From Carcharhinus amblyrhynchos (Eukaryota), in assembly GCA_965287045.1 (NCBI GenBank), contig OZ336885.1, forward strand, positions 66,030,001 to 66,094,000: a stretch of 64,000 nucleotides of DNA, written 5' to 3'. This document shows, piece by piece, positions 2,271 to 60,462 of this stretch. How positions within the stretch are numbered: the stretch's first letter is position 1; each line of letters opens with the position of its first letter. The translations under genes and the position numbers were made by a program. Below the pieces are notes generated by a model. The model was not told the origin of the DNA. It saw nothing but the letters and a program-made list of their open reading frames with translations, and searched no databases.

Positions 2271-2297
2271 ATGCAAAAGTCGAAGACGCAGTTTCGG
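2271..2297 (+). CDS. Candidate 27-nt phase-1 micro-exon (xDAKVEDAVS)
   Basis: atttctttag|ATGCAAAAGTCGAAGACGCAGTTTCGG|gtaaat. Pyrimidine tract + AG, GT donor, 27 nt, open in phase 1, ends in G like the other members. Confidence 0.65.
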
Positions 2298-4142: not shown

Positions 4143-4169
4143 ATCCCAGCAAAATTATTGAAGAAATGG
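4143..4169 (+). CDS. Candidate 27-nt phase-1 micro-exon (DPSKIIEEM)
   Basis: cttattttag|ATCCCAGCAAAATTATTGAAGAAATGG|gtaagc. Strong donor, open frame. Confidence 0.72.
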
Positions 4170-7942: not shown

Positions 7943-7969
7943 TGAAATCTCTCGTTGAAAATGATAAAG
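7943..7969 (+). CDS. Candidate 27-nt phase-1 micro-exon (VKSLVENDK)
   Basis: ctatccgcag|TGAAATCTCTCGTTGAAAATGATAAAG|gtaatt. Open frame. Confidence 0.65.
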
Positions 7970-9843: not shown

Positions 9844-9879
9844 AAATTGGCAGTCTGAAAGCAGACCTGAAATATGCGG
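9844..9879 (+). CDS. Candidate 36-nt phase-1 micro-exon (EIGSLKADLKYA)
   Basis: ttcatttcag|AAATTGGCAGTCTGAAAGCAGACCTGAAATATGCGG|gtaaaa. Peptide resembles the exon at 60436. Confidence 0.7.
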
Positions 9880-12098: not shown

Positions 12099-12125
12099 AA
12101 GTAGAGTTACGTGCATGGAATGCAG
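12099..12125 (+). CDS. Candidate 27-nt phase-1 micro-exon (EVELRAWNA)
   Basis: tttccttcag|AAGTAGAGTTACGTGCATGGAATGCAG|gtaatc. Open frame. Confidence 0.68.
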
Positions 12126-13954: not shown

Positions 13955-13981
13955 AACTCCAAGCCCTTCGCGAAAAATTGG
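13955..13981 (+). CDS. Candidate 27-nt phase-1 micro-exon (ELQALREKL)
   Basis: tttatttcag|AACTCCAAGCCCTTCGCGAAAAATTGG|gtaagc. Strong splice sites, coiled-coil-like peptide. Confidence 0.75.
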
Positions 13982-18560: not shown

Positions 18561-20264
18561 ATCCCAGCATTTTTTTTTACGTGAAAATAATTCCAACTAT
18601 ACTTATGAGGCTGGAAAACATCGCAGATAACCTTTCATCTTAAATGGCAACAGATGCAACACCTTCAATACTTTGTAGCGGCACAAAATTTCTGTAGAAT
18701 ACAACGTATACAAAACATACATGAGTGACACACCAAAGTGTCGGGAATGGGTTCCTAATTCTCGACCGATGAGGTAGGCATATGGTGGAGCATAACATTC
18801 AGTTTGATTCAAACAATTTGAATTGAATGTGGTGTTATAAATCACGTAAAGGGAACACGAGGAATAAAAGAGCAGTCAGCAAAGTTGAACTGCAAAACGT
18901 GATTAAAGGATGAATCAGCACAGACTCAGTATGAGTCATACAATGATAATCCAGAACTGCCAAAATAGGCGCATCCCAATGCGTAATTAAATCAGAGCGG
19001 AGGACAGGAGTTATTTGTAACTTTTTTTTGAAGAATGCATTTAATAGTGAAAACAAAATATTGTAAATCACAGGGCGTAAAAGAATGTAGCGATTACCGA
19101 GGGATGACACAAATACTGAGATTTAAGGAGAAGCTAAAGTGCATGAAATGCGATCAACAACGAAAGATATAGTTGGTTAGAGCATATATAGACAACAAAA
19201 TTAAAAAGAAGAAAAAACAAAGTTAACATCGGTCCCTCAGGAATTACAGTTTCAGAAATGATTATGGAAAGCAAAGCGATGGCAGTTGAGTGAAGCAGAT
19301 ATTAACATCCGTGTCCACTACAGAGCATACAAGTAACAGGTCAAAAACAGTTGTAGATCAGGAATTGGAAGGGAGAAGGCAATCTTGCAGTCAGACTTTG
19401 CGATAAAACCTGCAGGCAGAGGATTACAAGTTCTGCACAGACTTCAATAATTCTGCAATTTCTGGATGATAAAAAATAAATAATAAAACAAAACTGATGG
19501 ATTAGATTTAATTTTCCTTAATTACCTAGATTTTGCATAACATCACAAGTTTCCAAACGTAACTCCTTATTTCAAAGACATTGGGAAACACAACGCCGGA
19601 TTTTACAGGCTGTTAAACGAACATGCAACATAGAAGATGTCAGTAGCGAAGATTATTGATGTAAGTTCAGGACAACAGAAATAGCTCGACGAAATCAGCA
19701 CAAGCAACGCCGTATTATTAAAATGAAAGCACTTTGATTCAGATTGTTAGAGACGATTGACAGAATGGAGTGTGCTCTTGATAAAAAGGAAGAGGGGGAT
19801 ACCATTGCACTCATTTTTTTTTCCCGGAAGCATTATGATAAGATGTTCATCAGAACTAACTGTGGGAAACGCAAGTTGACTGCATAAGACGCGACATATT
19901 TCATGGATTCAGGACCCACCAGCTCACAAAACACATTGAGTTAGTATCAATGTTTATTATTTCGTAAAGTAAGGATATGACGAGTGGTGGGCAATTAGGA
20001 TCAGTTTAGAGGCCAAGGCATTTTACGTGGTATTTCGATGCTTCAATAAAGGAGATGAATGTGTGACTGCCAAATCTAGTGATGATGCATTGATAGATAG
20101 GAATGTAAATTGTGAAACACGCGTAACGCGGCAACAGAGGGGCATGCCTTCTTGAAATGAATGAACAACGATCTCTGAATTTGAGGAAGACGTGAACAAA
20201 GATGAAACTGTCCTTGTGGGCAGGCAACACCAGGTTTTAGTCCAACCTATTTATTTGATAATAT

Positions 20265-20304
20265 ACTCACTAGCTTTCGGGGTTACCCCCTTCGTCAGGT
20301 GAAT
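20265..20304 (-). ncRNA. Minimal type I hammerhead ribozyme (inverted copy)
   Basis: Exact reverse complement of 20845-20884. Confidence 0.75.
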
Positions 20305-20844
20305 GGAGAGTTCTGGCCTCAGACAGAGCATATAAAGCACAGACAGTTTAGAGATTACTGATTAAAATGCGAATCCTTACACCTAACCTGCTGTTCAAGA
20401 CCTGAAGTGGCTGATAATGTGAGTGGAAGGAGCACTGATCACAGGTTACAGAGATGTGTATTGTCTCCAGACAGCACAGCAAGTGAGGTTCTGCAAACCC
20501 AGGCAAGTCACGGGGGTCACAGACAGTGCGACACGAACCCAAGACCCCTGCCGAGACCGTCCCCATGTGTGCGGAACCCGGCCACCAGTCCCCGCCCAGC
20601 GACTCTGATGAATGAACATCGCTCGACAGTCACCAGGCAAGACTGTTCCCTTCCTGTTGGCGAGCACTTCGGTGGTCACGGGCATTCGGCCTCTGACCTT
20701 CGGGTGGGCATTCTCCAGGGCGGCCTTCGCGACACGCGGCGGCGCAGCAGGTTAACAGCAGGTTAGGTGTAAGGATTCGCATTTTAATCAGTAATCTCTA
20801 AACTGTCTGTGCTTTATATGCTCTGTCTGAGGCCAGAACTCTCC

Positions 20845-20884
20845 ATTCACCTGACGAAGGGGGTAACCCCGAAAGCTAGTGAGT
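20845..20884 (+). ncRNA. Minimal type I hammerhead ribozyme
   Basis: attcac CTGACGA a gggg-gtaa-cccc GAAA gc TA gtgagt. CUGANGA and GAAA cores, helix II GGGG/CCCC, palindromic AGCU helix III, CUA cleavage triplet, helix I attcac/gtgagt. Confidence 0.75.
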
Positions 20885-22076
20885 ATATTATCAAATAAAT
20901 AGGTTGGACTAAAACCTGGTGTTGTCAGACTTTTTACTGTGTTTACGCCAGTCCAACGCCGGCATACCCACATCTTGTGGGCAGGAACAGTAAAGATAAA
21001 TTATTCCCTCAATTGTCGGAAATTACAAACTTCTGGCAGTTGCTGGTGTTTTGGTTAATCGCAAATACTTAGTCTACATGTGCAGCCAATGATTAGAATA
21101 CTTAACATATTGTTACCCTAAGGGAATAAGACACGTGACAGATAATGCTTCAAGCAAATCAGCCATTAGTGAGATCGCAATGTCATCATCTCATCTATGG
21201 AAAGGTGTATCTGTGTAAGAATCAATAGATAATGTTTACTGGTATAATGGCAGGAAAGAATGTACTGCCTTTTGAAGAAATGTTGGAGAGATTGTATTTG
21301 CATGCATCATAATTTTGCAAATGCGAGCATAATTTGATTGAAACATTTAAAATCCTGATGTGCATCATATGGCTGATATGGGCCTGATGCCATGTTTGGA
21401 AAAAACGAAACTAGTGATTACTACTGTTAACTAAGATGTAGCTGATATTTTTAATCTATCATAGTGCCATAAATCTATTGAACCCTGTTGCACAAGAGGC
21501 GGCGCAAGTAAAACCTCTGAGTAATTTAAGGCTGAGGTGGCTCAATTACTGATTGACAGGTTGTTGAAAGGTTATCTGGGTAGTCACTAATGTAGGCTAT
21601 GTTCCAACCTAATGACTAGTGGAGGACGCTATTGGAACAGAATCGCGTTTGCCAAGTCCGCCATCTCTGCTGTCTAACATGACAAGGCAACAGTTCCATG
21701 GAAATCGATAACTGGAAGAATGATCTCCAAGCAATCTAACATCCTATAGTGGAGCTTTATTGCCATTCCATTTGGGCAACGGGGGGTGGGGGGCGGGTAG
21801 CAATCAGGGAAATAACTGGCCAACAGAACATACGCAAATCAGGATGGGGACTCCCCATTACTTTCTAAATATGAATGCACCATAAGTGTTGAAATTAACT
21901 GAAATTCCGCGAAATTCACTGTTCATGATAGAACGAAATGGATATAGATTATGGATCTTTCAATTAAGAACATTTAAACCAATTAATTTAGAAATAATAG
22001 ATTTTACACGTGGATCATATCGAAAGTGATTGTGAAAAATATGATAACAGAATTTTGCAAAATTGTCCCCTGATTT

Positions 22077-22408: not shown

Positions 22409-24405
22409 ATGGATTGGAACAGTTTATCTTGTGCCCAAAAAAAGCGTGGCGAAACTGAAAATAAAAACACGTTTGAGATAGTCAAAGAACCAAGTACATG
22501 AACCAATACATGTGGCTTCAATTGATTTTCATGTTTTCAAGTAAGGCACCATCATTCGGATGGAAAGTACAATTAATTCAGCAACAATTAATTTTAGAAT
22601 GAAATGATAATTAATCAATGAAGAGGAAACAACTAACCAGAATCAGTGATTTTAACGCATGATAACATATTGTTTAGTGGGGAACAGTCAGGGTAATTTC
22701 TGAAACCCAAGCTATTCACATGTTTCAACAATGGCTCCATCTTATCTCTTTCCAAACTTGTGAACCATATCCAATTCGGTGGAAACGTGAGTCATGAGAG
22801 TGTGCAAGAACAATTCATGGAGAGTTTTAAAATTTCGGAAAGGGTATAATATCATTATGCATCACATAATGTGAATGTATGCGAAAAATAAACAGATTAG
22901 TAATTACATTATGTAATAATTGATAAGGGATTGAGAAGTAGTGACATGCGAAACAAGTTGTCTGTAATGGTTTTCGGGTCATTAACAATTGTGCACCATT
23001 GCACCACATTACTACAAAAGCATTCCGATATTCAGCTTCATTTCAATTGCATTTCTGATCAGAAGTAATAATGTTCTGTTGCATGTCTACTGAACCGCGT
23101 TGAAATGCGTATTTTATCACCATGCGTAAGTTTACCCTCCTTAATAATGGAAACAAAAAGTATGCCTGCAGTAAGAAGGAATAATGAATTGTGCCGTTGC
23201 CGGTAACTAATATGCAGAATTTTGTTAATGTCTGGCATCGGTATTGCACTTTTTTCTTCAAATGAGATGTTAACAAGCTGAAGCATGCAACGTTCATGTC
23301 GGATTCTGCAGTGCAGCAGTTGAAACGAGATTTCCTTCCTTTTGGACGGACTGAAGGTCCACAGTCTTACTATATAAGGTGCGTCCATGACGACTCAGAG
23401 AAACTCATTCCATATCTTGTTCAATCATTGCAATTTTCTCAATAGGAGAGCTCAAGTCACACGTACACTTTTAGATAGCAAGAATATCGTGGGATATTGA
23501 AGGAGGTAGAAAAATGATCGATGTGGATGATCAGTCTCAATCTAGGTGAATGGAGGAGTATAATCTTATTAAATCAACCTAATGTTCGAATTCACACTGT
23601 CACTTCACAAAATAAAATAAGCCTTTCAATAATGTGGAAAAAAAGGACTGGTCATTAATAAAGCACCATAGGCAAGAGTTGTAGCGTTTTTGTGAGATTG
23701 CAATTCTTATGATTTATTTGCTTTGTTTTAATTTTGAAGCAATAATGTAATCTTTACTGAAAATCAGGACGTTGCCAGGATTTTGGAATGTTTGCATTAT
23801 TTTATTTCCAATCTTCTTTAATAAATTAATCGAAATAGCAATTAGGAAAACATGCAGTGCTGAGAATGATATATGGGTAAAGTATGAAAGAAAACAATCA
23901 AGATTTGGATTCGGCAAGACAGCACTTCGAAGATGTCAAGATAAAATTAGCAGAACAACGGCATTGTTTCTGGTTCTACGTCTTTTGGATAACTAGCTAC
24001 TCATAAGGATCAGATTTTCTTTTTCCTTTGATTTCATTGCCCACAACCAGTTAACAAAATTTGGCCTTTTCCTGATTATTTGCATGCAAATACACAGAAA
24101 TATCTTTGTTGTAACCAGGAATTCTATACATCCATGCATGTTTTGTTGATTTGTATTTCACTAATGCTCAAATGTCCCGTTAGCGAACAGTTTTTTTGTA
24201 ATTTCCGATTACTTTCAGATTTCCTTAAACATATGCCAGATGATGTTGCTGTTATTTCCTTTTTTCTTTTTCATCTTCTGTACTTTTGTCTTTGTCTCCC
24301 TTCTCCCCCTCCTCCTCCTCCTCCTTCTTCTAGTTTTTCTTTGTCTTCTTCTTCTTTGTCCTCTTCTTTTTTCACGATTTCTTTTTGGTACGTCATTTTT
24401 TGCAG

Positions 24406-24432
24406 GCACATCACTGCTGGCAAAGGAAAATG
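24406..24432 (+). CDS. Candidate 27-nt phase-1 micro-exon (GTSLLAKEN)
   Basis: ttttttgcag|GCACATCACTGCTGGCAAAGGAAAATG|gtaagc. Preceded by a long CT-rich tract. Confidence 0.72.
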
Positions 24433-25290: not shown

Positions 25291-28200
25291 ATCTCAATAT
25301 TTTATGTGATGATTGTGGAGGACGTGAAAGACGTGTTGTGAATGAAAGAAAACATGGACCTTGAGATGTGTTCTCACTAATCCACACGTTTTTGCTTACA
25401 ATATTAATGCTAAAAATGTATTAGTCTGTTTATAACGTGTAGATTTTGTGTCTCTCCCTCAATATGCAAAATTTGCCATTTGCAACTGTAATGACAAAAA
25501 TGTGAGACTTTGACAGTGTGCACCCCAACAGATGATCGAATGTGAAATCCTGGAGTATATTCTGCATTTGTTGGATGTTGTATTCGCAACCCAGGATCTT
25601 CAAAACTTTGAATTCAATCGCACAGGGAACTGTCCTCAATTATAAATTAAAAGTCTTTACTGCAGTATTGAATGCGTTCTTGTCAAGTTTGTGAATGAGC
25701 AAAAGAGATGGGAATGTAAGTGGTGAGAATAACAGAAACATTCCAAATTTGGAAATAAGCAGATTACTTGAATGCGCAGTAATATGACAGATGGAATAAG
25801 GTGCTCGGAAATGCAAGGTTCTGCATGTTTGTAGGGATACAAAGAAGATCAAGATTAGCTATTTGTACAAAGATTGCCGAAAACTGCAGCACTGAAGGAT
25901 TTGTATCCTTGCGAATTAAACACAAAAGCTCGTATTAAATTTGAGCAGATAATTTTAAAGGCCAATGGAATGCTTGTTTTTATTTCAAAGAGAATGGTGT
26001 AGAAAAATGGCATTTCTAATGTTGCAAAATAAACTGGTTGGAACACCCTTGAAATACTGTGAAAATTTTTATCTCAACTAAGAATACATAATATGCAACG
26101 TCAGTACATGCAGTTCAGCGAACGTCCAGCTAAATGAATTCGCTTATACAAGGATTTTCTTATGAGGCCCAATTGAATAGGTTTTCGTTGAAGGAATTGG
26201 AGGTCATACGCTTGTGAGGCAATCGTCTTGAGCCAACAAGCATTAGCAGGACGCATTACAGCATAAATGATGGAAGGGCAGCTCGCCACTTGAACAAGTG
26301 AAAGACGAGAATGTATACCTTCAGTGCAAGAACTTTTCATTTTAGACAGAGATGAGGAAAATGTTCTTCTTCTACAGAGTTAAACTGGTGAATTCGTCAC
26401 CACCGAGCATTGCAGAGGTGAGGGCGTTAAATAGTCTCGATATTTCGAGAACAGTTTTAATGATTAAAAATAGAGAGAGAGAGACTGCGATGAAGTGGAA
26501 AAGTTGAGTTAAGCATTATGTTATCAGATCACAGTTCAGTACACAGATCAGGTCATTATGTTAAATGTCACGATGACATTTAATTGCGGAGAAGATTCAA
26601 AGGGCCACATCTTCAAATTCCACTGTCTTGCCTCTTGGCTACAGTAAAAAAATACCTCGGTTCGTCCATATTTTATGCTATATACACCATACGGGGGAGG
26701 CTCATGTAGACATCTACATCATCTCATTAAAACTGCATGGACAGACATAAAATTTGTAGCAAGCTTTGGAGCATGCCAGCCATGGACTCCTCAATAATTA
26801 ATGAACATCCAGACTTCTGACCTGATAATCCATAACCGTTTTTCAGGAAGTATCTGATCATGTTAATGTCTAAGACATCTCCGTGGGGATTTCTTGTGTT
26901 GACTTCTTGGAACATATTATTCTTCTCCCACAACTTCAAGCATCCTCACTTGTGCTAGATCCGGCTCTGGTCACATATTAACCGACCGAGTTCGATTGGG
27001 GCCGTTCTTGCTTGCGTCCAAAATGCTATACAACATAAAATATTGTATTGACAATAAAATAAGAAACCCTCAGCTTCATGTAAGGAGCTCATCCCGCTTG
27101 TGTGTGCGTGCAGGAGGGCTGTGATTAGATCAGTGTCTGGCGAAACAGACAGAATTCAGCCGAATGAGTGAATGATTGTGTTAATATGAAGCAAAATAAT
27201 ACATCACGGAGCTGTCACACGCTATTTAACGCCTTGGATTGGAGTGAACAGATTTCAAAGAAAAGACGAGTGGGAAAATGGAAAAGTAATGTGGCCCGTC
27301 CAGTTGGACCTATTGGGTTTTAATATAATGTTGTGAGACTTCTTACACTGCTAGTCCTCCGGGCAGCGAGATCTACTGCCAACGTTGATGATCTGATAAA
27401 ATCATAGTGGATCTGATAAAGAACTTCAAATTTCAAAATGTCGATGTTGTTTCCCAGAAATTCGAAAGTTGAGAGAAGCTTCAGGAAACAAACGTAAGGA
27501 ACATGCGAGTGGTATTTTATCGAGCGTACATTTCACAAGTTGATGCGTATGGGTTTGAGTGAAGCGGCGACATGGGTTTATTTTTCACCAAAATGTAGGT
27601 CTTTTGCGATTATGATTTGTTGGTTTAAGAACCGGAAGCGCATTACAGTCGTGCCGAATTTGGCAGCTCTTTGCTTGGACTTTGTGAAAATATGGAATGC
27701 CCCTTTCCCATTTCAAAGCTACTGGGGGTTATATTGCAAGAGTGCCACTATATTTAAACAGTGCATCCATTGAAATGCATCCCTGCATTGTGGCAACAAT
27801 TGTACTTGAGTCATCTTTGGCAACCACGGCCCCTTTCCATGTGGAGAATAAAATATGACATTACTGTTACAACATGCTCCTTCACTAATATTGTAAGATA
27901 TTTAATTCACGGAACAACTAATTAAAATGTCTGATTGTCATTCATGATGCATTAGCTCGGAAGTATCCGTTCGCCTAACGGCGAACATTATTTTGTGATT
28001 AGTTTGTGGCAGATCCTCGAACAGCTATAATAAGTCGACTTGATCATGAAGAAAAAAGAAGCCTCTAATATTAGCTACAAAGAACAATTCACAACTGCAA
28101 AATTCCGCAAAGATTGTCTGAGTTAAAGCATACTTGGGACATAAAAATGACAACTAAATCTTGGCTGGAAATTCTGTTTGCTTTGCTATTGATATACAGG

Positions 28201-29226
28201 CTACGGATTCAGTGGCTCTACAAATAGTTGTCGTCAATCTTTCGTCCATTTCCTAACAAATCAGATATTCTCGAAAGTTGCTGGAGGCGCCTCATAGTCA
28301 AGCTTTAAAAATGGCACGTTAAAACATTCTCACTCTCCTCCCCCGATAGTCTCGTCGTCAAGGCAATAGCTCCCTGATCCCATTATGTGGCAAATACTAT
28401 ATTGAAATTGTGTGCAAAATTTCACATTCCAAATGGCAGTATGGTTCCTCACTGAATACATATCAATAAAACATTTCACCCAACTTTAATTGTTACATAT
28501 TCACTCTGATTAATTTCCAAATTTGTTCGTAAAAGATAATATGTTCAAGAAATTCGAAAATGTATTTTTCTTCCCTCAAATATTACATCATTCTGCCTTA
28601 ACAAGACTACCTAATTAATTGAAAAAAAATAGTATATGTTGATGGCGACTATAATGAAGAAGAACGAAGTTCTTGCAATACTGGAAAAGCACGGTCGCGG
28701 TTGGTGAAGTGGGATTTGGGTTGAAGGCCACATTATGTCAGGAACGTTCGTTATATAGAAGGGGTAACTGGTTTGAATCGTTTCTGCAGAAATATACTGC
28801 TACATTTCAATCAAAACAATTCAAAGTTTGCAATTCAATTTTGTTGAGGGACTGAGCAAATTCAGAATGAAAATTACTCCGACAATAGATTAGATTATAA
28901 CTTGAAAAAACAAGTCAATATGCATATTTATGAGAAGAAGGGTGAACATTGTTTGTCGTTGAAATACTTGTTCAATCATGGCGCGAGAAATGGCTTCCTT
29001 CTGCGTTCTGCCGATTCTGCATTATTTTTTGCATTTTATGTGATAACGGTTTCCAAATGTTGAACATCTCCACGAATGTATGGTGCACTTATACGTTTGA
29101 ACAACCTATTCGGTGTCCAACCAGGATTGGTAGACTTTTCCAAGATCGCCTTCTGGCATATTTAGTATGTGATTTTTGCATTTTTGCCCAGAAGTTCAAT
29201 ATGTCACTTTGCGTTTGTCTACGCAG

Positions 29227-29262
29227 GACTAAAGGAAATGAAGAACACTCTCAAAGAAAAGG
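29227..29262 (+). CDS. Candidate 36-nt phase-1 micro-exon, tandem unit 1 (GLKEMKNTLKEK)
   Basis: gtctacgcag|GACTAAAGGAAATGAAGAACACTCTCAAAGAAAAGG|gtatgc. Confidence 0.7.
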
Positions 29263-30306
29263 GTATGCCAAGCTAAGGCGCGGTTCAAGTTATGGCGCAA
29301 AATGATATGCTCAAGGAAGTTGACAATTAAGGATCCACGACTTCACGCCGTTTATAATTGAGTTCATCGGTCTAACTATCCGACTGAACTAAGTAAACGG
29401 ATGATCAAACAAAACAATCTACTTATTTTCCTGACTGTTGAGATAAAACTATCTTTCTCTTTTAGGAACAGAAAGAAGAACAGCGATCTGAGTTTCATAT
29501 CGCTATTAGAACATATGGGCGTGCAACGCCTCAACTCTTCATTCCTTCACCTCTTAGCGTCATACTTGCGGAAAGATGCAACAGCAAGAGGCAAATTGTA
29601 CACTCAATGAAGAAAAATTATGCCAATGATCAAGAATGTTATTTATTGAGTAAGACTAGATTTTTTTTTGGGGGGGGGGGGGGGGGGGCGCGGTGGGGGG
29701 GGGGGGGGGGGGGACGGTGGCGGAGTGCTCTGTACATTTCTTTTCTCAGAGACTGGTAGGGGGATTGACCTTTTCAAACTCGGGGGATGTGAGGATACAA
29801 TACATGGAGGAAGCACAGAGCCACTGCTGATGGAAAATGGCAACAAATGACAAATATTATCTGTAAGAGACTGAACAAGTCATAAACATTTGAGGCTTGA
29901 GAAGCAACCGTTTTGTTTTAGGAACTTCAAAATGTTTTGCTCGGAAATAAGGCTTCATAAAGCTGTTCAAGAGTAAATTGAATTACTGTTTGAAAAACTT
30001 TAAGAGACAGACTTAATGACAAAAGGCGATGTTTTGCTATCATTGAAATCTTTTTCAGACTTAGCGGGGAAAAACAATGCCTCCATCTGTGTTGAGCATT
30101 TTGCGTTTTATTTCTGTGATAATATTTTCCAATTGTTAAGCATCGCTGTGACGTCATGATTCAGTCATACGTTTCAACAAACGATCCAGTGTCCAACTTG
30201 GATTGGAAGTCAGTGCAATGTCGCCTTCTGACACATGCGCATTATGAATGTGACTTGTGTGTTTTGCACAAAATTTCAACCTGTCGCTTTGCGTTTCTCT
30301 GCACAG

Positions 30307-30342
30307 AAATAAAAGAAGTGAACGACGCGCTCAGAGAAAGCA
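30307..30342 (+). CDS. Candidate 36-nt phase-1 micro-exon, tandem unit 2 (EIKEVNDALRES), weak donor
   Basis: ctctgcacag|AAATAAAAGAAGTGAACGACGCGCTCAGAGAAAGCA|gtcggc. Aligns with the unit 1, 3 and 4 exons, but the donor is degenerate. Confidence 0.45.
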
Positions 30343-31319
30343 GTCGGCCAAGCCAAGAAGCGCTTCAAGCAATGGCTCAAAATGACATTTTCTATTATAC
30401 CTATATAGGTTCACAATTAGGAAAATGATACGATATGTGAATTTAACCATTTGAAAAAAAACTCATCAGCGTGCACTATCATACTGAAGCAAATTCTTAA
30501 ACCAATCAAAACCATTTTTCCACGGGCAGATGACAAAAGCCTTAATTTGTCTTTTCGAAACAGAAATGAAAGCAGGGAACTGAGTTTCAAGTAGCTGATA
30601 CAAAATGTAATGTCACCGCTTCAATTGCGCAATTAATTCAGTTCTCAGCGTCATGCATTCGGAAAGACATGCAGGCAAGAGGCAGAGTGTACATTGGATT
30701 GAAGAGGATTATGCCAAAAATCAAGAAAGATAATTTCGAGTTAGATTAGATTTGTGGGGCACTATGAAGCTTTTTTTTTCTTGTTGAAGACTAGGGGCAT
30801 TGAGTTATTCAAACTCATAGCAAGGGAGGAGAGAATAAAAAGAAGAAACATACGGCCACTGCTGATACAAAACGAGAACGAAAATGTCAGATATTGATTG
30901 TGATATACAGAACAACAAATGTGAAATTGACGTTTGAGAAGCAATCACTTTTGATTTAGAACTTCAACGTTATCTGTCGCGGAGTCAGGCACGTTAAAAC
31001 TATCCCAGACGAAGTTGAATTCATATTTGAAAACACAAAGCTGCAGATGACAAAGTACTTTCTATTGTTCAAATGCTTTTCCCAAACTTCGTGCGATGAA
31101 TGGCCCGCTTCTTTGCTCCGCTTATTCCGTTGTACTTGATTTTCTGTGATAACGTTTTTGAAACTTTAAACATCTCCACGAATATTGGTTTCAGTAAACT
31201 TTTGAATAATACCAAACAAAATTGGAAGGCGGGCCCATGTCGCCTTCCGGCGCATTTAGAATGTGAACTGTGTGTTTTACACAAATTTACACAATGTAAC
31301 ATTACTTTTCTCGAAGCAG

Positions 31320-31355
31320 GACCAAGCGAACAGGAGAACGCTCTCAAAGAAAGTG
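31320..31355 (+). CDS. Candidate 36-nt phase-1 micro-exon, tandem unit 3 (G/R-PSEQENALKES)
   Basis: ctcgaagcag|GACCAAGCGAACAGGAGAACGCTCTCAAAGAAAGTG|gtatgt. Confidence 0.62.
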
Positions 31356-31589
31356 GTATGTCAAGCCAACCAGCGCTTCAAACAACGGCTCGAAATGATA
31401 TTTTGTTTTGTGCGCGCAAAAGTTTACAATTAAGAATCCAGTGTGATACGTGAATTCAAACATTTTATAATTTAAATCGTCAGCGTGTCTATTATACTGA
31501 ACTAAATAAAATGAATTATTAAATCAAACTAAACTGTTTTTTTCTCTAGCGATGGGACTCGCCTACCACCTTCGAAAACCAAAAAAAAA

Positions 31590-31830
31590 ACATGTTGGGA
31601 ATTCTTAAGAGGCATGGCAGCAAAGGAAGGAACTGAAGTTTCCTTTCCAAATGACGCTTTGCCAATACTCTTTGAGAAAGGATCACCTGAAGTCGAAATG
31701 TCAACTCCTTTCTCCCGTTTTAGATGTTGTTGAACCTGCTGAGATCTTCCAGCATTTTCTCCATTGTTTTCAGATTCCAACATCCGCAGTAATTTGCTTT
31801 TATTTAAACTTCCTCCTTTCTGAACACACA
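31590..31830 (+). mobile_element. Short interspersed repeat inserted in tandem unit 3
   Basis: Extra ~240 bp absent from the other units. Contains gaacctgctgagatcttccagcattttc and a degenerate hammerhead-like gagaaaggatcacctgaagtcgaaatgtc. Confidence 0.5.
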
Positions 31831-32629
31831 CACACACAAACAGCAAACTGAGCTTCAATTAGCTGATGCAAAATTTCACGTGCACCTGTTCAACTGTACG
31901 AATACTTCAGCTGTGAGCGCCATGCTTTCGAAAAATGTGAAGACAAGAGGCAGAGCGTTATATGGATTAAGCAATAATAATGCCTAGGATCAGAAGCAAC
32001 AGTTTCGAGTCAAATTGTGTTTGCTGGTGCTCTATACATTTTTTTACTTGGTGACTAATCGGCGGGTTGAGTTATTAAAAATTATATGACGTGAGGGTAT
32101 TCTCAATGGGGGAAATACGCAGCCACTCTTGATGGAAAACGAGAAAGAAATCATCAGATATTGAGTGTAATCGATAAGAAAATAAACACATAAGCAATTG
32201 AGGTTTGAGGATCAAACTGTTTTTTTTTATCTAGGAATATTAATGTTTTCTGCCGGGGAATAAGACGAACACTAATCATGTGTAAATTGGATTAATATTT
32301 GAAACAAAAAAAAAACAGGAATATGCACATTATGGGGAGACGCCAGTATTATCTATTGTTTACATCCTTATTCGAACATGACACGAGATATTGTCTCCTT
32401 CTGGGGTGCTGCAATGACTGTTTTATTCTTGATTATGTGTGTTAACAGTTACCAAATGTTAAACATCTGCATGAATATAGGTTTCAGTTATATGTTTGTA
32501 CAAACTACCCTATGTCCCACCAAGATTGGAAGAGAGGTTTATGTTGCCTCCTGTTTCATAGGTATTTAGAGTGTGATTTGTGAATTTAGAGCGAAAGATT
32601 GACATGCCACTTTGTTTTTCTCTATGTAG

Positions 32630-32665
32630 AACTAAAGGAAATGAAGATGCTTCTGAAAGAAAATG
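32630..32665 (+). CDS. Candidate 36-nt phase-1 micro-exon, tandem unit 4 (ELKEMKMLLKEN)
   Basis: ctctatgtag|AACTAAAGGAAATGAAGATGCTTCTGAAAGAAAATG|gtatgc. Confidence 0.7.
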
Positions 32666-34219
32666 GTATGCCAAGCTAAGACACTGTTCAAACTAATGGG
32701 CGAGGTTATATTTTATTCTCACAGAAGTTTTCAATTAAGGATCCAAAATTATATGTGATTTGACACAGTTTGTAATTTGATTCATCAGCATGCCTGATCA
32801 TACTGAACTAAATGAAGAAATGAATAAACAAAGCAATGCCGTCCCCCACCCCCCCCCCCCCCCCCGCCACCCCCCACCACCCCCGATGGCACATGGGAGA
32901 AGATCTCCTTCCTCTTTTCAGAACAGAAAGAAAAACAGCAAACAGAGTTTCAATTAGCTAATGCAAAATTGTAACTTGCAATTACAGCCTCGTCTGTACG
33001 ATTACTTCAGTTCCGTGCGTCAGACTTTATGAAAGATGTAATGGGCAGAGGTAAGGTGCACACTGGATTAAGGAAAGCTATGCCGAGTATCAGGGACGAC
33101 AGTTATAGGCTTTAGATTGGATTTGTCTGATTATATATGTTTTTTTAGTCAAATGTCGGGATTGAGATATGCAAATACATTGGAAGCGAGGAGAGAATAA
33201 ATGTTGGAAACACAGAGCCACAGTTGATAGAAAATCAGAACAAAGCAACAAAGATTAATCTCAATAGTCAGTAAAATGCATAAGTATTTGACGTTTGAGG
33301 AGAAATCATTTTTGTTAGGAACTTCAAAATTATCTGCCGGGGAATACGGCTCATTAAAGCGATCTAAGAGTTTTTATTTTGGGGGGGTGGAGGAGCGGGG
33401 GGAAAGCAATCAATAGTATGCAGACTTACGAGCGGAAAACAGGGTATTGTTCATTTTTGAAATGTTTTTTTCCAATATGGCGTGGTAGTTGGCTACCTCT
33501 GTGCTCCGACCATACTCTTGTCTATAAGAGAATCCATAGAATCCATACAGTACAGAAGGAGAGAATTCGGCCCATCGAGTCCACCAACACAAGGCCACTC
33601 GAGCCCCTATTATTGATTTTATATGACATTTATATCCAAATGAAAACGATTACCATGAATACAAGGTTCAGGAAAGGTTTGAAAAACCTATTCAGTGCCC
33701 CACCAGGATTGTAGCGCAGGTCCAAAGGCGTCTTTTGGCACATGTGGATGTAAGCTGAGGCTGAATTCACTCTATGGCTGAGCTGCCATATTCAATTCGC
33801 CGCAGTCAAACTCGGTTTCCGACTACGCACTTCCTGTCCATTCTGGTCTTCACCAGTCATCTCCGTTCTTCGCCACCGGTTATCTTGCGACTTCGCTGAC
33901 CAGATCTGACTTTTTGCAACTTAAGATCCGTACCCAATTCGACACCCGTTGATCGAAAAGCTGGGCCCGTGAATTTAAAACCGAGAGCAGTCAGAATGCA
34001 CAGGAGGGAGGGAGCTGCCAATTGAGAGGTAGCGTCTGTAGTAGTAGTAGTGCAAACAGGATGGAGTGGAAACTGTGAAAAGTGCATAAAAGAGCACACA
34101 AAAGGCATAAAAGAGAATGACTGGTGGATAACTTTCCAGATTGGATAAGAGGTGATGGGGAGAGTTGAAGAGCAGGGAATTGCGAAGTGAGCCGGAAGCG
34201 GAGAGAGAATTATCTGCTG

Positions 34220-35620
34220 TGTCACGATCTGTCCTTTATTATTATTATTGATTCGTGGGGAATGGGCGACGTTAGTTTGCCAGCCTTAATTGCAGTCCAG
34301 AAGGTGCTGGTAACCTGCCTTCTTGAGTCGCTGCAATCCAGGTTCTGTGGGCTGACTCGCAAGGTCTTTATGGAGGGAATTTCATGTGTTTGACCCAGCG
34401 GTTGCAATAGAATGGTGATCTGTTTCCAATTCAGGATGTTGAGTGGCTTGCAGGAAACTTGCAGATTGTGGTGTTCCCATTCATCTGCCCCTCCCCCCGC
34501 CCCCACCCCCATCACCCAATGCCCTTCTATATCGAAGTGCTTAGGATTTTGATGATTGTTTTAGGATCTTTGGCGAAATGCTGAGTTTCATTTTGTAGCT
34601 CGTACAAACTGGAACTACTGATCGTCGGAGGTGGAGAGATTAAATATTTATAGATGTGATACCAACCGAGCGGACTGCTTTGTCCTGGCTGAGTGTTGTT
34701 GGATCTGTACTTATGCAGCCAATTGGGGAGTATGACGTCGCATTCCTGAATTGTGCCTTGCAGATGATCGGTGGTCTTTGGGAAGTCAGAAGTTGAGTTA
34801 GTCGGCACAGTACTCCTGACAGCTGATCTGCTCTTGTAACCACTGGATTTATGTGGTGTGTCCAGTTGAGTTCCCGGTCGATGATAACCCCAAGGATGTT
34901 GACAGTGAGGAATTCAATGATGGTTACACCATAGAAAAAGCAAGGGGCTGCGTTTTGAATAACTCTGATTGTCACTGTCTGATATTTGCGTAGCGTCAAT
35001 GTTTCTTGTTCCTTATTAGCCCAAGTTTGGATTTCATCCAGATCTTGTTGCATATGAACATGCTTCAGTATCTTTCGAGTCGCGAATCGTGCTGAGCATG
35101 ATACAATCATCGGCAAACACCCCCACTTCAGACTTTATAACAGAGTTAATGTCATTGATGAAGCAACAGAAGATTGTTGGCCCAAGGACAACACTGTGAG
35201 GAACTCCTGCAGGAACGCCCTGGAGCCGATATGACTGACGCTCCGCCACTACAACCATCGACATTTGCACCAAATATGATTCCAACCAGCAGAGTGTTTG
35301 CCCCCGACACCCTTTGACCACAGATTTGCTAGGGCTTACAGACACCACATCCGGTCGAATGAGGTCTTGATGTCGTCGGTTGCCACTGTCACATTGCCTC
35401 TGGTATTCAACTCTTTTGATCATGTTTGAAGAAAGGCCGCAATGAGATCAGGGGCTAACTGAACATGGCGAAACCCAAACAGGGCGTCACTGAGCAGATT
35501 ATTGCTGAGCAGGTGCTGCTTGATAGTACTATTGATTACGCCACCATCACGTTGCTAACGATCACGGGTAGATGGATTGGACAATAATTCGCAGGGTTGG
35601 ATTCACCTTTTTTTTGTTTC
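34220..35620 (-). mobile_element. Decayed CR1/L2-like LINE (RT domain + 3' region)
   Basis: ORF remnants GVPHSVVLGPTIFCCFINDI...FADDC and QQDLDEIQTWA...LGVIIDRELNWTHHI, with frameshifts. Confidence 0.8.
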
Positions 35621-38379
35621 TTTGTGCAAATGACTTATGTGTGCAATTTTCCATAAGTTTCTGTAGACAATTAAATTATTTGAAAAGCTTGTTGTGGTAT
35701 AGAGTATTGCAGTGGGCAAACTCATAAACCTGCACAAACATTATGAATAGCGTTGCCAACCTCTGTAGCATAAGCTTATAATTATTTAATGAACGGAATT
35801 AATGATTCTGTGGAACGGATTTCATTATTGAAAATAAATCTACTTTTGCACGCATCAATCAAGATATGCATTAGAAATGGTAAAAGATCAGTCATTGAAG
35901 AGACGTGAATTTCAGACAATTGCCTTTAGGTTGTATTTTTTTTGGCACGCCTTCCAATTGTGACTATTTATCATCCAAGAGTATTGTTGCATGATTTGCG
36001 TAGTGGAAAATAGATGGAAAAACAAATTAATTGTAAATCCTCACACTTGTTCATCTGTCATTTACTGAGGACGTCATTTATTTGCCCCGAAGTGGTATTA
36101 TGATCAAGTAATGAACAGTCGGTCTTAGATAAAACGATTATCCATTCTAGGGAGAGATACCAATGTACTTATATACCGTATACTTATACTTGTAACAGGA
36201 CACATCGTTTTTTGTCTGTGAAGTCCCCCATTTTATTTGTCATGGCATTTTATATTGTTTTCATGATCCGTAACTTTTTGTTTGCGCGCACGTTTTGTGT
36301 CACATGCAACTATCAGGCAGCCAACCCGAATATGTGAATTGTGTTGATTTATTTACAGAGGATCGGTTGTCCCAATGTTTGAAACGTTCGTTTCTCAGTA
36401 ATATATGCTCAGTTTTCTACTGAACACAACTTTCTTTGATTCATTACAAGGTACCGTTCTGGCAGTTGAACATCACTGCAATTTGTTTCATTTGATAAGC
36501 AAAAACAATTAATAGATGAGACTGTGAACAAATTGTAGAATTATAGAATTGAAACAGGTTTTGTGGAATGATTTGAAAAGATTTGTGAGGATATTCCGTC
36601 TGATACGTTATACTTCATCAGTTTGACGGCTTAAGGCTTTCTACACTACTGAGCCATGGCTGGGAAAACACGGAAGCTGGAGTCGAATGCAGTCGAGACC
36701 GATCAGTGCACGAACAGAATGATTTAGGCACGAACAGGGAACATCCTGCTGAACTGAAGGAGTGCAAATGCGAATGCTGACATGTTGACAAAGTGAAAAA
36801 AAGTATGGACTTATAAGACCATGGCATCGTATCTTTTGCCGTCATGGTCAACCATATATTGGAATCGTTATTTGTGCAAGTATAAGAAGAGAAAGGATGT
36901 GATTTCTAGTGAAGAATTCAGGTGATTGGACAGATCTGAGCTTTGTTGCCGATATTAACCAGCAGAACGTGGGCCTCAATGGTACACTTTGCTGGTGGTG
37001 ACATATGAGCGTACTTTCCCTCTTCATTCCGACAGTCCTCTTTCTTTTTTTCCTTAAATCTTCAGAACTCGAAGTGCAAATCTGATCGTAGATATTTGTA
37101 ATTCTGGCCACACTCAAGTTCCATGTGAAGCTCTTCGCATAATCCTTCAACTAACGCAATCGGCATGTCCTCGTTTTTTCTCACCAACATGTGTCCAAGA
37201 CACCTGAGATATTCTGCATTGTATCAAACAATCCCTGCGTCTTAAATACAGAAGTCTTGGCATGTTTTTTATTCATCTTTTCTAAATGAGACCGCAGAGA
37301 TCAATTCGACATAGCTACTGGCATTTTTCGGTCATTCACCATTCATATGTTTAGTATACACGGCTGCTTAAATTCAGAGGCATATTTAAAAATGTCATAA
37401 AAAAGAACGGTGCGTTCTACAAAAATGTGTGAGAAACACATATATCTCCATCTTGATTAAGGATTCTTAATTAAATGGCTCTGGAAATAACCCACAGGCT
37501 TTTGTCCCTTGGTATTTTAACTCGTGCCCGCATATTTAACCGTTTGCGTGTCTGTGTCCACAAATCACGATAACTTATACTTCTACATTACGAACATTCT
37601 CATGCCAGCGTGGTTTCGTTTAACACAGTAAAAGATATGTCTTCCTTCACAAGGATCCATGCTGCAAAATACGAGGCCAATGCCGCTCACATTCTGTAGA
37701 TATTCACTTAAATTAATTCAGAATATTCCGTCTTAATTATAACACCCACGTTGATACAATCTCTTACTGCCGTTTTGTTTTTCTTCTTATTGTTCTCTCA
37801 ACTCTCGAAGTTACACACTTTTAATCAGTACTGATTATGGGAAAGGACTAGACCTGTGGAAGCAAACTTGCCAACAATATAAAATGTCAATAAGCAATGA
37901 TGGTCCTTATTGTGTTTTCTATTCTGCCTCTAGCTTCCTGGGCAGCCCATGTATACTCTGCTGATTGCGCTTTCCGTCCAAACTCCTACAACGCTCCTGC
38001 ATGCATCACAGCGAATTGCCAGTTCTATGCATATACCATTTTTGTGTGATATTACAAAGGGTAAAATGGTGCCACATATTTTTGTGCCGCTGGCCTCCTA
38101 ATTTCACCTTACACCAGATTCGCCGAACTTCTTGCATTGTATATGTCACTTGAATATTCAGCGAGAGGAAAGACTCAAAGGTGACTGCAGTCAAACTTCC
38201 ACTTAATTCTGCAATTGTCTAATGTCAGTTACACAGAGATCAGTTTCTACGAAGAGAATGAATATTACACATTTTACTGCCTCATAATAAATTACAACAA
38301 TTTTAAACAACCGTTTGAGCATATGGTATTTGGGTTCACAGATAAATTAAGCCAGGCATTCTATGCATTTTAGTAAAGA

Positions 38380-38640: not shown

Positions 38641-39339
38641 ATCTCAAATGTATTGCTATATAGTTAAAAATTTAGCTTTATGTGCCGTGTTTTTTTTACC
38701 CTCTCACCATCATCTGTCGCTCTTCTTGTTTCTTTGAAACAGCATTTACTATGTGAAAATCATTTCACGCCAGCGAAACGCATTTCACCAAATGGAAATA
38801 ATGTGCGCCACGCTTAGTACGTCCCCCACAGTAAATAAATCTGAACTCATTCATTATCTGATGTCTCCTGAGCTACATCCGGTCCTTCAAGTCCTCAACC
38901 GAAATTTACGCTACAGTCAATGTAAGTTTGTAAAATACCAGAGCATTTTTTTTGCCTGAATATCCGATATGAACGATTTCGTGGTGCACAAGACGTTGGG
39001 AACGCGGTTCGTAACGCATGTTTGGGAAGGGATGGGAGCGCGAGGGTGTGGGGGGTGGGGGAGGTGGATGTTGCGGGGGGGTGGAATTATGTATATATTC
39101 TGACGATTGTCTGCAATAACTTCAGATTTTAGCATTCATTGGCTACTGCTGTTCAATACGTTATGAGTCTTTTGGTATTCCCCGCACGTTGTCTTTCAAA
39201 TACTCTCAAAATGGCTAGAATTAACTCCCAGAATCTGTATCCCACTCTTTCCAAATGCCCGAGGATTGCATTTTAGCACCTAATTACCTTTCTTTTGGTG
39301 GGGGGGGGGAGGGGGGGAAGAAATAAAAGTTCCCATGTT

Positions 39340-39845
39340 AACCAGCGTGTCACCCTGACAATGAGGGACAATTGAATTCGGCCGAACCAACTAACCCGCA
39401 CATCTTTGGGCGCCTGTTATAATGCTTCAAATGCGAAATGTCCGAAAGTACTCTCCAACACGCCGTGCAGCCTCCCAACTAATGACTCTCTCGAAACTAC
39501 CTGCTGCCTAGGGAAAAAAAACCGCATAATCAAATACCAATCCCCCTCCTGACATACTCTATTCCACGTTATTCCGAAACAAAAGGAAACGTTTGAGAAG
39601 TTGGAACAAACAGCTGAAGAACATCGCTTGCCCGCTGTGATCAGGCTTTTGTATGGACTTTGCTGGTATTAAGTTGACATTTAACTACACCATAGCTCAG
39701 ACTACATTGCACTATAACATGCTTATTCTATTTCCTTCTCTATGTACGGCAAGCACTGCCTCTACACCCCTCACTGAAAAAAAAATGCATTTCCCTTCTT
39801 ACTTATATACGTGACCATAATAAAAATTGAAAATCAAAATCAGTT
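39340..39845 (+). repeat. Left arm of inverted duplication (SINE fragment fused to Rex1-like 3' end)
   Basis: Reverse complement of 40495-41010, including the junction ctttgg(g/a)cgcctgttataatgcttcaa. Confidence 0.75.
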
Positions 39846-40494
39846 TGATTCGAATTTAGTTACCTCTTAAAACAAAATCAAATTGAAATAAAGGTCATAA
39901 AGTAGTGTTTGAATTAAGGCTGGTAATGAAAAAAAAACTTTCAAGGTCATGTCTTTATTTATAAATATAATTCTAACTATTTAATTGGGCGAACTGTTGG
40001 ATGAAATGACAACCAGGTACCTATCTAATTGGCGCATGTATTGTTTTAATGCCAGATGTCTGCATGCTAATATCAATTGAAGGAATCATTTAATAGCACT
40101 CTTAGACTCACCTTCAAAACAAATATAGTTCGCCTTTGTGGAAACTGCTCAGCCGAAGCTCCTACTTACGCCCCAAAGGAAATGCCAAACAAGTGATGGC
40201 ACTGTTCATGTTGATGGCAGGTCAAAAGCCAAATCAAGTTGTGTCTAAGGCGTGCATTGTACTGAATCAAACGTTCGTTCACGTCATGGTAAGTGAAACC
40301 ACTTTAAAGAATCACCCATTGCAGCAGTACGCCGTTCATTTAAAATGCCAATAATATGCTTGCTAGTACCTGCAGACATTTCAAAGTTGAGAAGTGATCT
40401 GAAATATCAAGGCAAGTAAATTATATATTTGCACATTTTTGGAATGTAGTGTATTCACTTCCCTGGGTTTTTTCGGCAACATTCTAAAAGAAAT

Positions 40495-41100
40495 GATTTT
40501 GATTTTCAACTTTTGTTTATTATTGTCACATGTATAATTATGCAGCGATTTTTTTTTTCATCGCCTGGTAAACAGACAGAGTATGCCATACATAGAGAAG
40601 GAAAGAAGAATGCGCCGGATAAAGTGTAATGTAATCTTAGCTAGCTGTAGATAAATATCAACTTAATACGAGCAAGGTCCATTCAAATGTATGAGCGTAA
40701 TGGGGAAGAAGCTGTTCTTCAGTCGTTTGCTGCATGTGCTCAGACTTTTGCGTATTTTTTTCTGGAATAACGGGAGGATAGAACATGTCAGGAGAGGGTG
40801 ATGTCTTTGTTTATGCTGGTTGCTTTTCCGAGGCAGCGGGCAGTGTCGAGACAGTCATTGGGTGGTAGACTGTATTGCGTGGTGGAGAGTAATTTCGCAC
40901 ATTTCACAATTGAAGCATTATAACAGGCGTCCAAAGATGTGCGGGTTAGATGTGTCGGCCGTGTGAAATTGTCCTTCATTGTCAGGGGGACTAGCTAGGG
41001 TAAATACATGGAATTATGGGGATAGGGCTAGGGTGGGATTGGGATCTGTGCAGATACGATGGGCCGAACAATCTCCTTCTACATTGTAGGATTATGCGAT
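40495..41100 (-). repeat. Right arm of inverted duplication (Rex1-like 3' end + SINE 3' part)
   Basis: See the left arm. The SINE portion continues to a tail near 41100. Confidence 0.75.
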
Positions 41101-43570: not shown

Positions 43571-43901
43571 TGTCGTATCGAGTGGGAATCAGGAGGCCAT
43601 ATAAAATTTGCAGAGGCAGAATTTGGACCGTACTTGAAGTATTGTATTTAGATCAGCACATACTACTTCAGGTAGGGTGCAGGTACACCTGACGCAGCAC
43701 AGGGGCGATAAAGAGTAATGTGCCTAATGATAAAAAAGCTGGTGTTGGGATGGTAGTTGGAGAGATAGGATATTTTGTACGTGACTGAATAAAAATGCTT
43801 GGGGGGTCAAGATCCGGCGAAGTATATGGAGATAAATGTTGAGAAGCCATTACAATTAACCGGACAATCAAGAACTAGGTGGTAGTGCTACAAATAAAGT
43901 A

Positions 43902-44664
43902 ATAAGAACATAAGAAATAGGAGCAGGAGTAGGCCATCCAGCCCTTCGAGCCTGCCCCGCCATTCAATAAGATCATGGCTGATCTGTCGCTGCTCAGTTC
44001 CACTTTCCCGCCCTCTCCCCATAACCCTTAATCCCCTCTCCTATCAAAAACCCATCAACCCGCGTCTTAAAAATATTTAGCGAGGCAGCCTCCACCACTT
44101 CAACGGGCAGAGAATTCCAGAGATTCACCACCCTTTGAGTGAAGAAGTTCCTCCTCAACTCCGTTCTAAACCGCCCCACTTTTATCTTGAGGCTGTGCCC
44201 CCTAGTCCTACTATCCTTTCTGAGCGGGAAGAGTCATTCCACCTCTATCCTATCCATCCCATACATCATCTTATACGTCTCAATGAGATCTCCTCTCATT
44301 CTTCTAAACTCTAACGAGTACAAGCCCAGTTTATTCAGCCTCTCCTCATAGCTCAACCCCCTCAACTCCGGTATCAGCCTAGTAAACCTCCTCTGCACTC
44401 CCTCCAAGGCCAAAATATCTTTGCGCAGGTGCGGCGCCCAAAAATGCACACAGTACTCCAGTTGCGGCCTCACCAATGCCCTATACAGCTGCAGCAAGAC
44501 CTCCCTACTTTTATATTCAATCCCCCTCGCTATGAAGGCCAGCATCCCATTCGCCTTCCTGACCACCTGCTGCACCTGCAAGCTGGGTTTTTGCGACTCA
44601 TGCACAAGGACCCCGAGGTCCCTCTGCACCGTCGCCTGCTGCAGTTTTTCGCCTCGTAAGTAAT
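43902..44664 (-). mobile_element. Young 5'-truncated CR1-clade LINE copy
   Basis: Near-identical reverse complement of 47475-48237, with ORF QRDLGVLVHES...LEYCVHFWAPHLRKD and an (ataagaac) tail. A possible 7-bp aagtaat TSD or microhomology lies at 43897 and 44658. Confidence 0.95.
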
Positions 44665-45039
44665 CAAAAAGTGGAACTACTTTGAGGACGTTATTTCCGA
44701 TCTTCCAAATAATGGTGTGTGCCAGGCGCTAACCTCCTCAATTGGTATTTAGCTACATTCGACTAAAGTATTCATCATGATTCGGAATTCTCCTTGAGAA
44801 TAGTCGATATACAATGAGGTGACACAATAGGAAAAAAGTTCTTTCAGGTAGCGGCTGCAGTCCAGATAGACTACATTGCCATCTTAAGCACCTTTAAAAT
44901 CCTCTGATTCCTTTGATATGTGATTCTCTCATTTTGCCACTATTTACCTGAAGAGCTCTATCTCACTTCACTATTTGCTGATCGGTGTTCAGGAAGGCTA
45001 CTTTTTGTTTTGTCCCTCTATTTGTTTCGTTCATTTAAA

Positions 45040-45720: not shown

Positions 45721-45857
45721 GAATTTCGGATTTACTTCCGACGAGGTTTTCGTTAATTATGCTTTTATATTCGGGGAATGTATGTAAAAAAAAATGCATG
45801 GAGATATCGTTATGCAGTAATTAGTGAGCCTGGGAGAGATGACCTGCAGGATGACCT

Positions 45858-60435: not shown

Positions 60436-60462
60436 AACTTAGAACAGATCTTGAATACGCAG
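60436..60462 (+). CDS. Candidate 27-nt phase-1 micro-exon (ELRTDLEYA)
   Basis: ttcgtttcag|AACTTAGAACAGATCTTGAATACGCAG|gtaaaa. Paralogous to the exon at 9844. Confidence 0.72.

Follow-up and report, generated by a model that had tools for sequence, protein, structure and literature searches.

Does the tandem array of short, exon-like segments found in the genome of Carcharhinus amblyrhynchos represent a series of micro-exons, and if so, which of their features have been preserved? The array lies in a window of 64,000 nucleotides (nt) of contig OZ336885.1 (positions 66,030,001 to 66,094,000 of the forward strand; all positions below are those of the window), where a cassette of about 1.1 kb is repeated and each full copy contains one 36-nt segment. 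We consider it probable that the four 36-nt segments represent micro-exons in symmetric phase 1, belonging to a large gene on the + strand that, within the window, consists almost entirely of exons 27 or 36 nt long and encodes a helical rod rich in charged residues and leucine, and that they stem from an old tandem burst.

Self-BLAST and self-comparison of the 64-kb window revealed a head-to-tail array at about 28886-33751 on the + strand, in the same orientation throughout. It contains four full units of 1.0-1.3 kb each, 63-67% identical pairwise, and a partial fifth unit (Table 1). The exon-to-exon spacing across the array is 1080, 1013 and 1310 nt. Self-BLAST, nhmmer and alignment thus recovered the four diverged, exon-bearing units described in the initial annotation, and the many indels that it had noted in their introns correspond to 44 distinct internal gap blocks in the four-unit alignment. 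A four-unit profile searched with nhmmer against the 64 kb retrieved the four units and the pieces of unit 5, and nothing else below an E-value of 0.36. Flank homology z-scores range from 15 to 50 among the four cassette exons and are at most 4.7 for all other exon pairs. Unit 5 consists of two pieces (33413-33517 and 33609-33751) separated by a short dispersed-repeat fragment at about 33518-33608 (repeat family D14). Its end corresponds to position ~29170 in unit 1 and falls short of the acceptor by about 56 nt; a fifth unit cut near 33750, before its exon position, had indeed been proposed. The remainder of this unit was not found elsewhere in the window.

We also used a second DNA sample (run X1; kind unrecorded, share 0.37), whose contigs run through introns and which behaves as genomic DNA. 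It diverges from the window by about 2-2.6% (45 of 1759 and 55 of 2730 letters). The four exons and the unit 5 break probably do not result from misassembly, because X1 contigs contain all of them; one contig covers 30042-31797 (exons 2 and 3) and another crosses the break (33496-34412). None of the contigs listed extends across the whole array. The only X1 difference inside an exon among those listed (30329, exon 2) is synonymous in phase 1. None of the 15 listed joints, out of 58, matches a predicted splice junction or the unit register; the joint 31760-32843, which skips 1082 nt, connects an inserted repeat with a stretch of poly-C, does not fit the unit register and was set aside. The private insertion of unit 3, at about 31540-31830, displays a high depth in X1 and is repeat-like.

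Every full unit presents one gap-free 36-nt segment, with YAG in front and GT behind (alignment, n = 4). The AG, GT, exact length and open frame attributed earlier to all four copies were thus found in 4/4. Six pairs of invariant AG and invariant GT lie 9-200 columns apart, and only the 36-nt pair has an equal length in all four copies. Splice sites were scored with our own rough weight matrix and expressed as percentiles of the window's own sites; on this scale, 7 of the 8 cassette splice sites reach at least the 94th percentile. A phase 0 reading was ruled out by stops in 3/4 copies. The first residue of each peptide given initially stems from a split codon and is thus set by the upstream exon.

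A neutral simulation (star tree, intron-derived rates, 200,000 runs) kept AG and GT in a proportion of 0.028, left the frame open in 0.386 and avoided any indel in 0.160. All these features were retained together in 0.0019 of the runs, for a simulation that presumes an intact ancestral exon and a segment that was chosen post hoc. This value agrees with the earlier proposal that selection holds frame and length, and fits a selection that would retain the exon outline (AG, GT, length, open frame) while residues would be free to change.

The predicted chain of similar exons along the whole window, missed in the initial annotation, is the best independent evidence that the cassette segments are exons. 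We identified about 15-18 phase-1 candidates of 27 or 36 nt on the + strand, including the four cassette exons. With a splice score of at least 4, the + strand yielded six candidates of 27 nt and four of 36 nt, where the other 47 lengths averaged 0.79; the - strand had none of either length (Poisson p = 0.008 for the 27-nt count after 49 lengths). When the scan was not filtered by frame, the + strand candidates of 27 or 36 nt were open in phase 1 in 13/13 cases, in phase 2 in 11/13 and in phase 0 in 6/13. From the open-frame rates, 13/13 in phase 1 has a chance of about 0.002, three of the 13 being mutually duplicated. Moreover, the candidates at 9844, 40376 and 60436, 30 and 20 kb apart, have in common L[RK]xDL[KE]Y with an invariant tyrosine; among 4021 donor-anchored peptides free of stops, each finds its best matches in the other two.

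Table 1. Coordinates of the array units, exon candidates and adjoining sequence in the window
Feature	Position	Strand	Basis
Cassette unit 1 (intron-exon-intron, ~1.09 kb; poly-G expansion near 29670-29713)	28886..29973	+	self-BLAST, alignment, nhmmer
Cassette unit 2	29974..31010	+	self-BLAST, alignment, nhmmer
Cassette unit 3 (private insertion ~230-290 nt)	31011..32282	+	alignment, nhmmer, X1 depth
Cassette unit 4 (poly-C expansion near 32843-32884)	32283..33371	+	self-BLAST, alignment, nhmmer
Partial unit 5	33413..33751	+	nhmmer, E 1e-6 and 1e-15
Micro-exon candidate 1 (36 nt, phase 1, LKEMKNTLKEK)	29227..29262	+	acceptor 100th, donor 97th percentile
Micro-exon candidate 2 (36 nt, IKEVNDALRES)	30307..30342	+	acceptor 100th, donor 57th percentile
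Micro-exon candidate 3 (36 nt, PSEQENALKES)	31320..31355	+	acceptor 94th, donor 98th percentile
Micro-exon candidate 4 (36 nt, LKEMKMLLKEN)	32630..32665	+	acceptor 99th, donor 96th percentile
27-nt phase-1 exon candidate	2271..2297	+	splice-site scan
27-nt phase-1 exon candidate, weaker acceptor	4143..4169	+	splice-site scan
27-nt phase-1 exon candidate, other two frames interrupted by stops	7943..7969	+	splice-site scan
36-nt phase-1 exon candidate, L[RK]xDL[KE]Y family	9844..9879	+	splice-site scan, peptide comparison
27-nt phase-1 exon candidate	12099..12125	+	splice-site scan
27-nt phase-1 exon candidate	13955..13981	+	splice-site scan
27-nt phase-1 exon candidate	24406..24432	+	splice-site scan
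36-nt phase-1 exon candidate directly upstream of array, flanks not homologous to cassette	27458..27493	+	splice-site scan
27-nt exon candidate, weak donor (64th percentile), chosen by eye, uncertain	36359..36385	+	reading of sequence
36-nt phase-1 exon candidate, GC donor, L[RK]xDL[KE]Y family, other two frames interrupted by stops	40376..40411	+	splice-site scan
27-nt phase-1 exon candidate, L[RK]xDL[KE]Y family	60436..60462	+	splice-site scan, peptide comparison
Unrelated sequence adjoining unit 5, right boundary approximate	33752..35600	.	high X1 depth at 34773-35906

The conceptual splice of 15 candidates gives 155 codons with no stop, 43% E/K/R/D, two prolines and a leucine-rich composition. 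Its hydrophobic periodicity is in the helical range (shuffle p = 0.03). Where an exon ends in LxYx, the next candidate supplies V, I or L at Y+3, and the resulting ITIM (immunoreceptor tyrosine-based inhibitory motif) pattern, LxYxx[VIL], was observed in 4/4 junction pairings tried; these pairings come from the two of the three L[RK]xDL[KE]Y exons with a downstream candidate, and most candidates start with L, I or V anyway.

Several results weigh against this interpretation. Exon identity between units (0.58-0.81, mean 0.676) is no higher than that of introns (0.63-0.67), with 0.71, 0.67 and 0.67 at the three codon positions. Among 994 non-exon 36-nt windows, 415 are at least as conserved as the exon segments and 135 are gap-free, a gap-free stretch of 36 nt being thus not rare in itself. 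The initial annotation had said that its reading would fall if the segments were no more constrained than random windows and never spliced; of this condition, the half on constraint holds for substitutions. In phase 1, the proportions of nonsynonymous (pN) and synonymous (pS) differences are 0.324 and 0.29, respectively, and the neutral simulation gave a pN of 0.31 (5-95% range 0.22-0.41). The resulting pN/pS of about 1.1, from no more than 11 codons and roughly 6 synonymous sites in each pair, gives no sign of purifying selection on the four peptides. Phase 2 (pN 0.249, pS 0.458) is within the neutral range yet has a lower ratio than phase 1. Neither purifying nor diversifying selection is seen on the cassette peptides, at very few sites, and relaxed amino acids fit. 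Because the exon is no more conserved than the intron and pN stands at its neutral value, the amino acids look relaxed and not diversifying; of the two options considered initially, relaxation is retained, while no surplus of replacement changes speaks for diversification.

Other difficulties concern single copies and the chain itself. The donor of copy 2 (GTCGGC) is weak, ranking at percentile 57 among GT sites of the window vs. 96-98 for the other three, and this candidate may be skipped or dead. The peptide of copy 3 opens with a proline. Each of the four copies can likewise be read without a stop in phase 2, a reading disfavoured by stops in 4 of the 18 chain candidates. The candidates at 4143, 9844, 36359 and 40376 come from a relaxed, phase-1-filtered scan or were chosen by eye and are less secure, and the roughness of the weight matrix and the presumptions of the simulation also count here. 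No gene start or end was found in the 64-kb window (the gene probably runs past both window ends), and Pfam detected no family-defining domain in the 134/134 stop-free + strand frames of at least 60 residues. Finally, hydrophobic residues recur along the four cassette exons with a period of about 4.0 instead of 3.5. This does not support a canonical coiled coil running unbroken through the array; at every junction the tandem 12-mers would have to be interrupted for a coiled coil to form.

This last point bears on a refinement, compatible with the micro-exon interpretation, that we hold as a possibility to be taken with reserve: the copies would be alternative exons, skippable or mutually exclusive, and the subset used would set the length and register of the rod. 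Given their symmetric phase and lengths in multiples of three, any subset could be skipped; one 36-nt and one 27-nt exon together encode 21 residues, i.e. three heptads, whereas four consecutive 12-mers break the heptad register, and donor strengths are unequal. Against this refinement, splicing is predicted here from the DNA, and with introns about 1 kb long there is no steric constraint that would keep two neighbouring exons from being used together. Exon skipping in BG tails (PMC5043582) and mutually exclusive duplicated exons (PMC9741552) are known, but the latter are described as changing conservatively, whereas the cassette exons drift.

It is rather unlikely that the gene is real and the cassette copies are mostly dead or rarely used pseudo-exons, with one functional ancestral exon and the others decaying neutrally. 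An exon divergence equal to that of introns and a pN at the neutral expectation would be expected from such copies, as would the weak donor of copy 2, the proline of copy 3 and the loss of the exon in unit 5. However, AG, GT, 36 nt and an open frame are retained in 4/4 copies, a combination seldom reached in the neutral simulation, and splice sites score high at all but one of the eight positions. Diversifying selection separating the four peptides, as in BG tails, is very improbable: pN is slightly higher than pS in phase 1 and variation in BG tails is reported to be selected (PMC5938342), but the observed pN falls at the centre of the neutral range, and 11 codons are too few for a conclusion in either direction. 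That the unit is a satellite or transposon, with an AG..GT segment arising by chance, is hardly credible despite an identity that is even along the unit, without an exon peak, since no further copy was found by nhmmer in the 64 kb (Tandem Repeats Finder being blind to periods > 500), no homogenisation is seen, no transposon domain occurs in the frames of the units, the exon chain extends through the window and X1 depth is 5-9 in repeat-free array bins, as in unique flanks, vs. thousands at fragments of long and short interspersed nuclear elements (LINEs and SINEs; qualitative comparison).

Then, we examined the age of the array. Kimura two-parameter (K2P) distances are 0.41-0.50 for all six unit pairs. 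Informative sites favour a grouping of units 1+4 vs. 2+3 (42 sites, the two alternatives having 28 and 18), and identity between units stays at or below 76% in every 100-column block, i.e. there was no recent homogenisation. Because these divergences are nearly equal, they point to an old, nearly star-shaped duplication burst, followed by private insertions, rather than to an ongoing expansion. The continuing expansion suggested initially is thus not borne out by six equally old pairs. The tails of the SINEs and LINEs in the window resemble shark and ray ones. On this reading, and with the slow substitution rates reported in cartilaginous fish (PMC8455134), the array would be very old.

Under the micro-exon interpretation, one 36-nt exon would have been duplicated together with some 1.1 kb of the intron around it, by a first duplication and then, as we infer, by unequal crossing-over, to give at least five units. 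Each copy would have been tolerated because it lengthens the rod by 12 residues without shifting the frame. Selection would then have purged frame shifts and stops and allowed residues to drift at about the intron rate, while one unit (unit 5) would have lost its exon and copy 2 would have been weakened. The rod would most likely be a spacer or a dimerising stalk or tail, whose length and helical character outweigh its sequence.

Other exon-like features were observed in the units. A second possible exon occurs at 29558-29590, 30649-30681, 31911-31949 and 33024-33050, with frame-preserving lengths of 33, 33, 39 and 27 nt. Its donor is a common AG followed by GC in units 1-3 and AG followed by GT in unit 4, the strongest GT donor among the candidates. 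Its peptides are weakly like the LRxDL family (rank 8 of 4021 for unit 2, top 0.7% for unit 1, top 9% for unit 4). The cassette may formerly have contained more than one exon, or unit 4 may have gained one. A gap-free block at 29466-29492, 30558-30585 and 32922-32948 has an E/Q/K-rich reading and no in-frame donor, with a pyrimidine tract and AG before it in units 1 and 4; it is possibly a dead 27-nt exon.

Along the chain, further phase-1 candidates lie at 10354-10386 (33 nt, GC donor) and 10625-10660 (36 nt). The former ends like cassette exon 1, and its direct join to 12099 would give a stop. The consecutive 27-nt candidates 4143/13955 and 7943/24406 are paired in register, both pairs being among the top 3 of 91 for donor-anchored identity (24/41, mean 14), hinting at an older duplication of a multi-exon block (27-27-27-36 twice). 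Flank alignment did not confirm this block duplication; the best z-scores of the non-cassette exon flanks are 5.9 and 5.1 among 66 pairs, relative to shuffles that destroy the splice-site consensus. Two inverted copies of a repeat of about 520 nt, 75% identical (39338-41003), flank the 40376 candidate and could loop it out within the pre-mRNA.

Mobile elements are present elsewhere in the window. The unrelated sequence adjoining unit 5 includes a decayed LINE-like reverse-transcriptase remnant (35037-35447, minus strand; match to Pfam RVT_1 at E 4e-4, short of the curated threshold). A young LINE at 43897-48236 carries RVT_1 (E 1e-34 at 46379-47980), and about 760 nt of its 3' end are duplicated in inverted orientation with 97.5% identity (43902-44664 vs. 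47475-48236). At 20225-20924, a 700-nt element with perfect terminal inverted repeats of 171 nt looks like a recent non-autonomous DNA transposon. Three SINE-like copies (5272-5584, 8058-8379, 10997-11279) are spaced by 2804 and 2891 nt; the DNA between them is not homologous, and this regularity is probably a coincidence.

We then considered the host gene. Our leading guess, a tentative one, is the tail of a butyrophilin/BG-like receptor. No Ig-V (immunoglobulin variable) exon was found among the same 134/134 + strand frames; the chain is already present at 2271, and the start of the gene may lie upstream of the window. Nor was any exon found in the window for B30.2, a C-terminal domain of most butyrophilins that BG lacks, and the gene may continue beyond 64000. 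One hydrophobic phase-1 candidate for a transmembrane exon before the tail (24334-24432) lies in a TCT/CTC simple repeat, mid-chain, and is probably spurious. The frame-unfiltered scan, enriched in lengths of 27 and 36 nt, gave no 21-nt candidate. Because the exons are not 21 nt and the window has no Ig or B30.2 exon, we do not claim membership of the BG/butyrophilin family from these sequences.

In the 134 + strand and 20 - strand frames submitted to Pfam, only RVT_1 reached or approached significance, as expected for LINEs; matches to DUF2838, GLF, PIH1_CS and acidic-repeat entries were below cut-off and disregarded. A protein search with a profile of 15 short exon-peptide rows, a weak test, examined 1564 candidates and gave none at E 10, and Rfam gave no match between 24000 and 41000. 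No paper was found to combine small exons of 27 or 36 bp with a coiled coil and exon duplication, and for shark butyrophilins no report of such a gene appeared by title or abstract start. A more specific scenario, which we regard as doubtful, is an undescribed receptor family of cartilaginous fish, with a tail of 9- and 12-residue micro-exons, cassettes serving as a splice-chosen, sequence-free module of length and register, and inhibitory tyrosine motifs completed only across exon junctions, the three exons that end in LxYx being ancient paralogues; if true, splicing would fix both motif spacing and signalling motifs.

A gene that spreads 27/36-nt exons across 58 kb or more is of a type that annotation pipelines miss, and the array is an annotation lead in this respect. 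It is also an evolutionary example: the duplicated exons have held on to their splice sites, length and frame, their residues change as fast as the intron, and the roughly 1 kb of intron duplicated with them serves as a built-in neutral control. If the BG-like host were true, immune tails built of micro-exons would extend to cartilaginous fish and to other exon sizes.

Helical or low-complexity spacers made of short symmetric exons are known in the stalks or necks of fish C-type lectins, scavenger receptors and C1q-domain proteins, and in the micro-exon series of troponin T and triadin. These are named only as alternative host-gene types, and no sequence link with them was looked for or found. 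The closest parallel is the cytoplasmic tail of chicken BG genes (butyrophilin/B7 family), a coiled coil encoded by numerous micro-exons with split codons (PMC5938342). As there, a long helical tail would be made of tiny exons, with a first codon predicted to be split one-plus-two, the copy number is altered by duplication of exon blocks and tyrosine motifs would occur in the tail (PMC5938342, PMC5043582, PMC4046983). BG1 has 13-21 exons through a four-exon repeat ascribed to unequal crossing-over (PMC5043582, PMC4046983), and some transcripts skip a tail exon or read through it (PMC5043582). However, BG exons are 21 nt long (few 18 or 24) with clean heptads, as opposed to 27/36 nt (9/12 residues) and an array period of about 4 here. 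The repeats of BG1 vary among living haplotypes, whereas this array is old, and, unlike chicken BG, this window shows no Ig-V or clear transmembrane exon.

In mammalian butyrophilins, the juxtamembrane exons are 21 and 27 nt long and in phase 1, with only few per gene. The likeness lies in small exons and a predicted coiled coil, located in BTN3A, ERMAP and MOG between the membrane and B30.2 (PMC7348870); unlike these genes, at least 15 small exon candidates extend here over 58 kb, with no B30.2 exon in the window. Finally, the array resembles tandem exon duplication, in which an exon is copied head-to-tail with its flanking intron and the frame is preserved (PMC9741552). Homologous exon and intron on the same strand, and a symmetric, frame-preserving exon with splice sites in 4/4 copies, were all found here. 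The mutually exclusive exons of that report are shown to be alternatively spliced and mostly retain key residues, with conservative changes, whereas those described here have predicted splicing and residues that drift at the intron rate. We therefore regard this real and old array of probable micro-exons as a new instance of a known process, tandem exon duplication.

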